From: an uncultured Candidatus Marinamargulisbacteria bacterium
GTDB lineage: Bacteria > Margulisbacteria > Marinamargulisbacteria > SXXA01 > SICP01
Direction of reading: 5' to 3'
Length of the DNA stretch: 27,676 nt
Assembly (NCBI GenBank): GCA_964652635.1
Contig: CAZZBY010000001.1
Coordinates: 1-27,676 of the forward strand
A model generated the notes under the pieces. The model saw only the letters and a program-made list of their open reading frames with translations. It made no database searches and was not told the DNA's origin. This document shows positions 20,297-23,435 of the stretch, one piece after another (positions within the stretch are counted from its first letter, which is position 1; the number at the start of each line of letters is the position of its first letter). A program made the position numbers and the translations under genes.

Positions 20297-22090
20297 ATGA
20301 CCATAGCCATTCACAAAATAATTGCACATCAGCTCACAAGTAGCTTGAGAGTTAGAGCTTTCTCTAGAGGAAAAAAAGATCTCCCCAAACCAACCGCCGA
20401 AGCACCTCCTATCCAAGATTTAGAAAAAACACTCGCATCTGCCTTCTGTGCATCTAGAGTAGATCCAATTTTTAAAAAAACAAAGGATAAAGCAGTCCTA
20501 ATCGAAGCCGCAAAAGCATTTTACCAAGCAAACAAAATTACACATCTCACAATAGAAGCGATAGAAACCACAATCACGCTCATGAAAGTCATCAGAGTCG
20601 CCGTAGAAGACTTACTGCCAGATCCCCGAATCCCAGAATCCATGAAACCCTATTTAAATACCGACAATATCATTTATTTTATTTCCATTTTGTATAAGCG
20701 AATGCCACAAGGCTCGTTTAGAGAAAGTCAAACCTCAATTAGACGATACACAAAATTAGTCAATGACATCCAAGCAAAATTAATCGATCACAATCATCCA
20801 AAAGCACTTGAATTTAAACCCAGAAAGGAATTCCTCATTAATTGGTGTCGTATTTTAATCGAAACCACCAGTCACCCACTATTATTAAATGAAAGAGAAA
20901 ATGCAGCTTACATGACAGCAAATAAAGACAAATTAGATCAATTATTTGGGGCTGAAGCCAAATTAGTATTGTTTATTTGTATGGTTGATGACATTGCCGA
21001 CATTCTTCAAGATGAGAAACTATTAAGTTATTTCATCAACATCCCAGATTTAATCAGCCTCCCAGCTGATCAAGTTTCAAATGAAATTAAAAAAATCATG
21101 GTAACCATGAAAAAAGACGGATACGGAGAGTACGCTGAATTTTTTGAATTTGCAGGAGAGATGTGGTCAGAATCAATTTTTGAAATTCATACCATCATGG
21201 ACCATGAACTTGCGGAAGACATCAGATCCAGAGAAACGCTAGAAGCAGCCATTATTACCAACATTAAAAAAGTAATGTTTAGCATGTCACAATCAGTCTC
21301 AATCAATGTCAGACCCGAAACCTTCAAAGGACATTATGATGATGTCGAAAGAGATTTGGCCCCCAATATGCTCATGACCTTCTTTAAAGCAATCGAAAAG
21401 GGACTATTAAAATCAGAAAAAAGAGAAATCGACCCGAAAACAGAAGCCACTCTCGATCGAATATTTGAAATGGGAGAAATTATCGGCCATTCAGGAAACA
21501 ACATTGCAACCTTAATGAGAGAAATTCAAAATGGAGATATTTCCAATACACTCATCCTCATTATCGACGCAAAACTCCGAAGCGACCTAAGTCTATGGGG
21601 AATGTCATTTAATCGCTACCTAGACTCCCTGTTCGCAAGTCAAGCCCACAATATCTCTGAGACCATCATCAGTTTTTTAGAATTAGCCGTCGAATGCTCA
21701 AAATCCAATAAAAAGTTAATGGCACTAGCCACAGAATTTTGTACGGCAAAGAAGGTCGAATTACACGAATTTGCCGACACCCTCTCAGATATCAAAAACG
21801 ATGAAGAAATTCATCAGTTCAAAACAAAGTACCTCCAGCATGACGACGATCAGAGATTTCAAGAAATAATGAAGGAGTTACAGCATAAAAGCATAGTATT
21901 AAAAGCAGTTCAGCTAATTTTAGACGACAAAAAAACCACCCCTCTCCAAACCTACTACGAACGAATCAACACTTATTTTGATAAAATAATGCGAGAGTTT
22001 GATACAATTAGCGTGCCGGGATCAGATCAGTATGTCAAAGGGATATATAATTTATTTGTTTTATACTTACTATTCAAATCAGACATGTAG
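20297..22090 (+). CDS. Uncharacterised class I terpene synthase/isoprenoid synthase-fold protein
   Basis: All-helical character. DDIAD (DDxxD, residues 231-235) and NNIATLMRE (NSE/DTE-like, residues 401-409) followed by GD..N, with spacing consistent with the alpha-domain fold. Confidence 0.6.
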   Translation: MTIAIHKIIAHQLTSSLRVRAFSRGKKDLPKPTAEAPPIQDLEKTLASAFCASRVDPIFKKTKDKAVLIEAAKAFYQANKITHLTIEAIETTITLMKVIRVAVEDLLPDPRIPESMKPYLNTDNIIYFISILYKRMPQGSFRESQTSIRRYTKLVNDIQAKLIDHNHPKALEFKPRKEFLINWCRILIETTSHPLLLNERENAAYMTANKDKLDQLFGAEAKLVLFICMVDDIADILQDEKLLSYFINIPDLISLPADQVSNEIKKIMVTMKKDGYGEYAEFFEFAGEMWSESIFEIHTIMDHELAEDIRSRETLEAAIITNIKKVMFSMSQSVSINVRPETFKGHYDDVERDLAPNMLMTFFKAIEKGLLKSEKREIDPKTEATLDRIFEMGEIIGHSGNNIATLMREIQNGDISNTLILIIDAKLRSDLSLWGMSFNRYLDSLFASQAHNISETIISFLELAVECSKSNKKLMALATEFCTAKKVELHEFADTLSDIKNDEEIHQFKTKYLQHDDDQRFQEIMKELQHKSIVLKAVQLILDDKKTTPLQTYYERINTYFDKIMREFDTISVPGSDQYVKGIYNLFVLYLLFKSDM

Positions 22091-22100
22091 TGGGATTTAA

Positions 22101-23435
22101 ATGAAACAATTTAAAAAAAACAACCTCGTAGAAGCACTTTCTATTACATGCATCATTCTATCTATTCCGTATTTCTTTATTTTTCGCTACTTTCAGCTCT
22201 TTTTTATCGGAGACCTCATTCTTGGATTTTGCGTTGCCTTTTTAATCCCACTATATTTATCCAGAAACAGCTATCCCAAACTCGCTAATTTAGTCTTAGT
22301 CATTGTGGCCACCGGTTTACTGACATTTTATGCCCTCATCCTAGGCAAGGAATCTGGTGCCCAACTTGTCCTATTTTCAACGGTCACAATCCCGATTGCA
22401 CTCTATAAAAAATCACAATTCTGGCAGGTATTTTTAATTACCCTCATCCCAATCTCTGCTGCATATTTTTTAGAAATAGTCAATTATCATTTCTTACTTA
22501 CCCCCATCCAATTATCACCAGAAGTCAAAAAGTTTTTTCATTTTTGCGCCATGTTTACGACGTTTTCCTTTAGCATTTTATCGTCATACCTGTTCTATAA
22601 ATCCAGAAAAAACTATGAAAAAGAAATTTTAAAATCCAATAGTCGACTCACTACTAATATTGCCTGGACCACACAAATCGCCCAAAAGCTTCAACGAGTA
22701 CTCGAAAGTGAAATGTCCAAAGCTCATTCCCTCCAAAAGTCAATTCTTCCAACCACCCCTCAAAAATACGAAGGTCTGGTCATCGATTATGTCTACATAC
22801 CGTCTCGATACATTAGCGGGGACTATTTTGACTTTTTCCCCATCTCCAAAACTCAAATCGGAATGACCATGGTCGACGTCGTTGGAAAGGGTATTGCCAG
22901 CAGTATTGAAGTCTTTAGTCTCCGCACCATAATCCACATCCTCAAAGAACATTGGAAAACCCCCAAAGAACTCATCGAGACCCTCAATCGCATAGCCAGT
23001 ACATCCGATGTGATCAAAAAGTATGTCCCCATGATCTACCTCGTCATCAACAGTGAAAAAAGAACCGTTACCTACATCAACGCCGGCCACGAACCAGGTG
23101 CCATCCTCAGATATCAAAACAATCATTACACCATTGAGCATCTCCATACCACCAATGCCCCCATTCAAACCGGACATTCCAATGAAGTTTACAAAGAAAT
23201 CACAGTAGTTTTAGGAGAAAAAGATCGATTCATCCTCTTTACCAACGGCTGTCTCAATGTTAAAAATGCCAGCGAAATCAGACTGTCTCAAGAAGGGTTT
23301 GACACCATCTTGCTCAGCTTAAGCAACCACCCCCTACGAGATCTCGCCAAAGCAATCAGATCCCATCTCGACCGCTACCGAGGGGCAAAACCGCTAGAAG
23401 ACGATATAACGATAGTAACATTTGGATTTGGGTAA
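22101..23435 (+). CDS. Membrane-sensor PP2C/SpoIIE (RsbU-like) protein
   Basis: About 5-6 TM segments including LGKESGAQ...IP (MASE7-like), coiled linker AHSLQKSILP, SGDYFD, DVVGKG, NAGHEP, TNG, DDITIV. Confidence 0.85.
   Translation: MKQFKKNNLVEALSITCIILSIPYFFIFRYFQLFFIGDLILGFCVAFLIPLYLSRNSYPKLANLVLVIVATGLLTFYALILGKESGAQLVLFSTVTIPIALYKKSQFWQVFLITLIPISAAYFLEIVNYHFLLTPIQLSPEVKKFFHFCAMFTTFSFSILSSYLFYKSRKNYEKEILKSNSRLTTNIAWTTQIAQKLQRVLESEMSKAHSLQKSILPTTPQKYEGLVIDYVYIPSRYISGDYFDFFPISKTQIGMTMVDVVGKGIASSIEVFSLRTIIHILKEHWKTPKELIETLNRIASTSDVIKKYVPMIYLVINSEKRTVTYINAGHEPGAILRYQNNHYTIEHLHTTNAPIQTGHSNEVYKEITVVLGEKDRFILFTNGCLNVKNASEIRLSQEGFDTILLSLSNHPLRDLAKAIRSHLDRYRGAKPLEDDITIVTFGFG

Follow-up and report, generated by a model that had tools for sequence, protein, structure and literature searches.

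The window considered here, a stretch of 27,676 nucleotides (nt) from an uncultured member of the Margulisbacteria (nearest public records UBP8_UBA817, Candidatus Margulisiibacteriota and Candidatus Marinamargulisbacteria), contains two adjacent open reading frames (ORFs), A and B, which encode a terpene-synthase-type protein and a membrane sensor phosphatase, respectively. This gene pairing recurs about eight times per genome and points to an undescribed terpene-based signalling system, in which A would make a hydrophobic isoprenoid that is perceived by the intramembrane domain of B, and B would drive a STAS/anti-sigma partner switch. The mechanism is put forward with an even chance of being right. 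An earlier note on this DNA had proposed a lipophilic isoprenoid cue sensed by the neighbouring membrane protein, and the pairing, the fold and the motifs described below support that proposal. The two genes and the gap between them are located as follows.

20297..22090, + strand: ORF A (P0001), 597 amino acids (aa); soluble, very divergent "A-type" class I terpene-synthase-fold protein

22091..22100, + strand: A-B spacer of 10 nt, from the stop of A to the start of B

22101..23435, + strand: ORF B (P0002), 444 aa; membrane sensor phosphatase

The association of the two genes is strict. A-type genes were gathered from metagenome contigs and from 20 of the phylum's 146 genomes. Downstream DNA is long enough to read at 28 non-redundant loci, and at every one of them (28/28) the following gene, in the same orientation, codes for the same MASE7-like transmembrane (TM) domain; a signalling gene beside the homologs of A, which the earlier note had anticipated from a neighbourhood survey, is therefore found at all readable loci. 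The outputs attached to these sensors are PP2C in 14, HisKA plus HATPase_c in 12, and cut by contig ends in the last 2, and the gap between synthase and sensor, measured for 27 A-type pairs, runs from -17 to 110 nt (median 13 nt). Two more long A-type proteins in other assemblies have a SpoIIE gene next downstream, a 635-aa synthase (L052:2225-4129) is followed by a sensor kinase gene, and the A-type proteins P0032 and P0040 carry a long N-terminal extension.

Sensors are also paired with synthases of a canonical kind. The genes upstream of the remaining sensors are not A-type, and nine of the ten that were tested score above the Pfam Terpene_syn_C_2 cut-off (E 1e-10 to 1e-30); a profile built from this canonical group matches 17 of 24 sampled ORFs upstream of sensors. 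When the coordinates of the 51 PF19086 matches in the phylum are compared with those of the sensor matches, about 43 are followed directly by a sensor gene in the same orientation, two tandem-synthase loci included, and the others comprise two divergently adjacent to a sensor, one at a contig end and about five with no detected sensor. It has been considered that A is an ordinary secondary-metabolism enzyme which lies beside a sensor gene by chance; this is scarcely credible, being contradicted by pairing at 28/28 A-type and about 43/51 canonical loci across 29 genomes, with differing flanks.

Both gene types are restricted to one class. A profile of the TM domain alone is present in 42 of the 146 genomes, all 42 from the window's class, and neither synthase (PF19086) nor sensor genes were found in the 89 genomes of other classes of the phylum. 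The window's own genome, which is 65% complete, holds eight synthase genes, of which four are A-type and four canonical, together with six sensors, forming five intact pairs; each gene outside these pairs sits at a contig end and none is demonstrably unpaired. In a relative of the same genus (G036; 1.4 Mb, 91% complete), nine synthase-like genes occupy eight loci, and a sensor is present at every locus, eight copies in all. The density of terpene synthases is very high for the genome size, with nine in the 1.4 Mb of G036 (loci L045-L050) and eight at 65% completeness in the window's genome (contigs C8, C52, C97 and C160).

Some loci are arranged differently. Two tandem terpene synthase genes precede a single sensor at L046 (G036:C9) and at G033:C5:47279-50147. 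Among the few synthases of the phylum with no adjacent sensor are two long Terpene_syn_C_2 proteins, encoded at L073:1478-4957 (G014, 1159 aa) and L074:2575-4983 (G009, 802 aa), each of which has about 480-500 unannotated N-terminal residues. The distant A-type relative P0045 (E 1.7e-6), on a metagenome contig from JGI (L072, genes 103-5134), is not followed by a MASE7-like sensor; a squalene/phytoene synthase-family gene and a Ser/Thr kinase-NACHT gene come after it. A 127-aa ORF with no Pfam match (L045:4680-5063, - strand) precedes the 605-aa canonical synthase in G036, and an ORF that is equal in length lies before the matching synthase in the window's genome (G000:C97:3192-3572, + strand). 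This small ORF may be a third component of that module.

Turning to the synthase itself, HMMER was run exhaustively against 1.84 billion representative proteins and returned 46 relatives of A, and the conservation counts given here come from an alignment of 41 members of this family. The positions of interest in A are listed below.

20987..21001, + strand: DDIAD, aspartate-rich DDxxD metal-binding motif (D231 and D235 in 41/41, D232 in 40/41)

21497..21523, + strand: NNIATLMRE, NSE/DTE-type second metal-binding motif (N401 in 39/41, T405 in 40/41, R408 in 39/41, E409 in 38/41)

20822..20824, + strand: codon of R176, invariant in 41/41 family members

The coordinates that the earlier note had assigned to the two motifs are exact (D231-D235 and N401-E409 of A), and its assignment of them to the class I active-site type agrees with their near-invariance and with their placement in the confident model of A, where DDIAD lies at the C-terminal end of helix 203-237 and NNIATLMRE at that of helix 380-411. 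In class I synthases the metal-binding motifs are carried by helices D and H at such positions. As judged from the alignment, conservation of the motifs is beyond chance, and A234 and A404, which lie within them, are kept in 38-40 of the 41 members. NNIATLMRE is followed by a conserved D414-x-S-N (D414 in 39/41), and the second position of the NSE motif in the family is N, S, H or A, not D. In hhalign, NNIATLMRE was aligned onto the NDxxSxxKE of the canonical paired synthases.

The fold predicted for A is that of an all-α class I terpenoid synthase, as the earlier note had expected of a structure search. Foldseek gave weak E-values (0.02-1), yet its matches are almost all terpene synthases, and an exhaustive VIA-align structure search produced a clear terpene-synthase signal; sequence identity with bacterial class I synthases (e.g., 7e4o, 6oh6, 4okm) is 7-11%. 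In the model, a disordered stretch (residues 1-33) at the N-terminus leads into a helical extension (about 39-106) and then into the synthase core (approximately residues 109-597), and no TM-like segment is present in the protein. Extra helices appear to follow the second motif, on the basis that about 290 of 489 residues align. A role as a polyprenyl diphosphate (prenyl-chain) synthase was rejected since A has one DDxxD and one NSE motif, not two DDxxD motifs; terpene synthases likewise outrank chain-elongating synthases, the first such domain appearing at rank 12 of the structural search. The chemistry of a DabA-like prenyltransferase, which has the same fold and was found at rank 10, is a candidate on structural grounds.

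The partner protein, B, is composed of an intramembrane domain and a phosphatase domain, which confirms the earlier description of a multi-TM sensor fused to SpoIIE and encoded 10 nt downstream of A. Its features are as follows.

22101..22745, + strand: B residues 1-215, divergent MASE7-like intramembrane sensor domain with six TM helices

22851..23423, + strand: SpoIIE/PP2C phosphatase domain, B residues 251-441 (PF07228, E 1.9e-29, 103 bits)

23244..23246, + strand: codon of N382 in the "TDG" metal-binding motif of PP2C (Asp in 12/13 related PP2C sensors)

In the AlphaFold2 model of B (predicted local distance difference test score, pLDDT, 91.9), the TM helices span residues 7-30, 34-55, 59-81, 89-101, 107-126 and 140-~165 and are connected by loops of 2-13 residues; TM6 runs on as one long helix to residue 215, after which the PP2C domain begins. 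No periplasmic domain is seen in the model, so any sensing would have to occur within the membrane or at the membrane faces, and the modelled architecture of six TM helices, minimal loops and a TM6 extension suits an intramembrane ligand. Residues P23, Y24, F28, L81, G82 and G86 are conserved in the B-type TM domain. Against Pfam MASE7 (PF20967), B scores 10.2 bits (E 0.62) where the cut-off of the model is 26.2 bits; three of its relatives lie above that cut-off (L009 at 27.2 bits, L045 at 30.6 bits and the sensor on contig C14 of the same genome at 29.7 bits), and B and the MASE7-passing sensor domains align as one family. A word-indexed search with the TM region of B returned just three proteins.

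The relationship between the sensor domain and its output was followed on a maximum-likelihood tree built from the TM domains of 48 sensors, 31 with a kinase and 17 with a PP2C output. By parsimony the output changed 11 times, and at least five of these changes are forced by well-supported branches. As the output switches repeatedly, it is the sensor domain, not the output, that stays with the synthase. Divergence among the synthases tracks that among their partner TM domains (Mantel r 0.87, with 0 of 2000 permutations as high), which shows that the pairs have been duplicated and inherited as units.

Several observations weigh against the proposed mechanism. With respect to the enzyme, A has no match in Pfam, NCBIfam or a PDB sequence search, and within its family weak matches to the Terpene_syn_C_2/Terpene_synth_C models of Pfam are seen in 2 of 41 members (best E 1.6e-4). 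The family profile returned just non-significant terpene synthase matches from PDB sequences, in the NSE region, its profile-profile comparison with the canonical paired synthases reached E 0.012 with the NSE region alone aligned, and jackhmmer seeded with a canonical paralogue recovered no member of the A family. Because the sequence and profile searches are weak, the kinship of A with terpene synthases rests on structure and gene context. The canonical Arg that lies 46 residues ahead of the NSE motif is likewise missing from A-type proteins, with Ala at position 355 in A and Ala, Ser or Pro there in the family, and the conserved C-terminal RY pair is absent from the 41-member alignment. The residues conserved instead are R176, N357, R408, Y590 and K594, of which R176 is a candidate diphosphate-binding Arg that would replace the missing sensor Arg. 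In favour of the mechanism, the canonical paired synthases as a group keep the DDxxD motif, the Arg 46 residues before the NSE motif (R202 = N248 minus 46), the NSE motif itself and R334-Y335, and because all of these elements are kept they look like working enzymes with the full equipment of active bacterial synthases. Since P0001 fails the Pfam model and the profile similarity to these paralogues is weak, the catalytic competence of A is less certain than theirs. With respect to the sensor, the metal-binding residues D241, D259 and D434 of B are present and N382 stands in place of the TDG Asp, a substitution that may reduce or change the activity of the phosphatase. The set contains no kind of synthase more divergent than A, and since A is without two canonical diphosphate-binding elements and B carries N382, the window's pair could be functionally modified in comparison to its paralogues.

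These features of A are relevant to an alternative in which the protein docks on B as a cytoplasmic subunit with a ligand-binding or regulatory role, acting as a pseudo- or slow enzyme whose pocket binds prenyl diphosphate or another diphosphate metabolite and reports isoprenoid or envelope precursor status. Retention of the metal-binding motifs in a family without the Arg sensor and the RY pair would be in keeping with such a role, as would the helical parts beyond the core (about 290/489 residues aligned, and the long extension in P0032 and P0040), and direct contact between synthase and receptor has a precedent in CqsA, which binds the intracellular domain of CqsS (bioRxiv 10.64898/2026.05.05.722802). 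However, the canonical paralogues in the same wiring retain the full catalytic set, B has almost no cytoplasmic surface besides its output domain, and the pairing has outlived exchanges of this domain between PP2C and kinase, which speaks against a conserved docking site there. In addition, no synthase-sensor fusion was found among the unpaired or long synthase ORFs examined, the 1159-aa and 802-aa proteins carrying Terpene_syn_C_2 alone and essentially no TM helices. A docking subunit is thus judged quite improbable, and a small-molecule mediator is preferred because B exposes almost nothing to the cytoplasm but an output domain that gets exchanged. As CqsA also contacts its receptor, a mixed model with both a ligand and synthase-receptor contact is possible by analogy.

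Further points of the same kind concern the pair as a whole. The Mantel correlation is explained by duplication and inheritance of the pairs as units and is no proof of ligand-receptor co-evolution; no exporter or response regulator gene is encoded next to the A-B pair; and the locus is present only in freshwater metagenome DNA runs, with no RNA run containing it. An alternative that draws on the first of these points reverses the flow of information: the sensor would perceive another cue, such as the state of the membrane or an external compound, and regulate terpene production through PP2C/STAS or two-component signalling, the terpene being a membrane modifier, defence compound or allelochemical with no signalling role. 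On this view the pair would amount to a biosynthetic cluster of a single enzyme with its own regulator. Biosynthetic loci commonly have their own regulators, the canonical paralogues resemble ordinary active synthases, and co-divergence of synthase and sensor as well as output swapping would also be expected from plain co-inheritance. What sits poorly with this explanation is that the sensor always belongs to the same loop-less intramembrane family, whatever the output or the synthase subfamily, that the genes are ordered from synthase to sensor with a median gap of 13 nt, and that no tailoring or export genes accompany the synthases at the loci examined. About eight separately regulated one-enzyme terpene loci would also be odd for a genome of ~1.4-2 Mb. 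This explanation is considered unlikely.

Returning to the isoprenoid-signal mechanism, its steps can be laid out from the data above. A would be a cytoplasmic class I terpene-synthase-type enzyme in which DDIAD and NNIATLMRE hold three Mg2+ for the binding of a prenyl diphosphate, and its product would be a hydrophobic isoprenoid, either a hydrocarbon or an alcohol, or possibly a prenylated small molecule. The isoprenoid would partition into the membrane and be recognized within the MASE7-like domain of B, with its six helices and next to no loops, whereupon movement of TM6 and its long cytoplasmic extension would set the activity of the PP2C domain. The substrate of this phosphatase would be a STAS protein in its phosphorylated form, part of an RsbV/RsbW-like partner switch whose genes lie at another place in the genome, and in sister pairs the same sensor domain would drive a histidine kinase instead. 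With about eight synthase/sensor pairs per genome, each pair may be a separate chemical channel, and the signal could act within the producing cell or between cells.

Both ends of this pathway are represented in the genome. IspH is encoded, as are two polyprenyl diphosphate synthases, and prenyl diphosphates are therefore available. Three STAS proteins are present, one of them in a STAS and HATPase_c_2 operon on contig C37 (L040, G000:C37). This operon belongs to a conserved block, also found at L001:4136-6401 and on the contig of P0032, that consists of genes for a STAS protein, a HATPase_c_2 kinase, a zinc-ribbon protein (about 100 aa) and a HemN-like radical-SAM protein. The block directly adjoins a PP2C-type synthase/sensor pair in two relatives, G036 (L001) and the source of the P0032 contig, and for this reason the STAS protein is likely the substrate of the PP2C domain; what the switch controls may be the zinc-ribbon protein. 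A soluble SpoIIE-HATPase_c_2 fusion encoded beside a STAS gene at L042:1932-3149 (G000:C77) forms a second, self-contained partner-switch module in the same genome.

The window has a G+C content of ~42%, and the surroundings of the pair are as the earlier note had described them, lying between a pterin cluster and nrdAB: on the 5' side are folE (GTP cyclohydrolase I), a peroxiredoxin gene, folB and a PTPS gene, and on the 3' side are nrdB and nrdA, which are convergent on the pair. No isoprenoid genes besides A were found among the window ORFs tested, again in agreement with that description, and a plus-strand consensus scan of the spacer (22091..22100) gave no terminator-like or promoter-like site. 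Elsewhere in the window (14985-17078), the Mfd (TRCF) homolog is just 697 aa long compared to ~1150 aa in E. coli and has a partial TRCF domain at its end.

The Margulisbacteria are relatives of the cyanobacteria and include animal symbionts, and the physiological roles of most bacterial terpenes are unknown. To our knowledge and in the literature searched, there is no description of a bacterial receptor dedicated to a terpene. The earlier note knew of no system of the form proposed here, and literature searches covering MASE7, terpene synthase and kinase neighbourhoods, and Margulisbacteria terpenes likewise gave no description of a coupling between a terpene synthase and a MASE7 sensor, nor of Margulisbacteria terpene genes. 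New here are the A-type subfamily, which is invisible to Pfam, the output through PP2C and a partner switch, the recurrent swaps of output, the phylum tally and the density per genome. Some eight or nine synthase genes in a genome of ~1.4-2 Mb are tied to one kind of sensor with interchangeable outputs, which provides a concrete ligand-receptor hypothesis that is testable on a few proteins. Were it correct, the uncharacterized MASE7 domain would gain a function and the uncultured Margulisbacteria would have an unexpectedly rich repertoire of chemical signalling. In its widest form, the suggestion is that one Margulisbacteria class uses terpenes as a signalling vocabulary, with ~6-10 divergent synthases per genome making distinct isoprenoids for cognate MASE7-like receptors that have PP2C or kinase outputs; this is tentative and more apt to fail than to hold. 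If this widest form held, no earlier family of bacterial receptors dedicated to terpenes would precede the MASE7-like domains, and many "orphan" bacterial terpene synthases would gain a role as signal synthases within or between cells.

In comparing the pair to known systems, the Terpene_syn_C_2 synthases (pimaradiene-type 7e4o, LrdC 6oh6 and selinadiene synthase 4okm) differ from A in that A has ~300 extra residues and a signalling gene context, where theirs is one of biosynthetic tailoring. The geosmin and 2-methylisoborneol synthase operons of cyanobacteria and Streptomyces, in which genes for cyclic-nucleotide-binding regulators lie alongside, resemble A/B in joining a bacterial terpene synthase to a signalling or regulatory partner gene; unlike B, these partners are soluble proteins of the CRP/cyclic nucleotide monophosphate (cNMP) type, with no membrane receptor and no paralogous expansion. 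On the output side, the RsbU/RsbP-RsbV-RsbW and SpoIIE-SpoIIAA-SpoIIAB systems of Bacillus share with B a SpoIIE-family PP2C input, with STAS and HATPase_c_2 proteins in the genome, whereas B couples a MASE7-like six-TM input to a terpene synthase gene, and the gene after the HATPase_c_2 kinase here encodes the zinc-ribbon protein and not a sigma factor.

Two systems combine a signal synthase with a membrane receptor in a similar manner. In the RpfF/RpfC system of Xanthomonas, which operates with diffusible signal factor (DSF), a crotonase-fold synthase makes a fatty acid signal for a hybrid kinase receptor. As in A/B, the synthase gene lies beside the gene for a polytopic membrane sensor and the signal is lipophilic (a prediction in the case of A/B); the sensor family is unrelated, and a fatty acid and a hybrid kinase take the place of the isoprenoid and the outputs proposed here. 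The closest worked-out analogue of the A/B pair is CqsA/CqsS of Vibrio, which, together with LqsA/LqsS of Legionella, uses an alpha-hydroxyketone signal, and in which, as with A and B, the synthase gene adjoins that of a six-TM, short-loop receptor. The differences are that A has a terpene-synthase fold where CqsA and LqsA have that of a pyridoxal phosphate (PLP)-dependent acyl-CoA transferase, that the outputs of A/B pairs are PP2C or a plain HisKA kinase, and that about eight pairs occur per genome compared to one of CqsA/CqsS; the TM domain of B is MASE7-like and is likened to CqsS by architecture. The ligand of CqsS, CAI-1, binds inside the six-TM domain and moves TM6 (bioRxiv 10.64898/2026.05.05.722802), and a further report describes the six-TM module of CqsS fitted to another output domain (eLife 2016, PMC4821796). 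A hydrophobic ligand held in the TM bundle, with TM6 and its extension transmitting the signal, is by analogy what is proposed for B.

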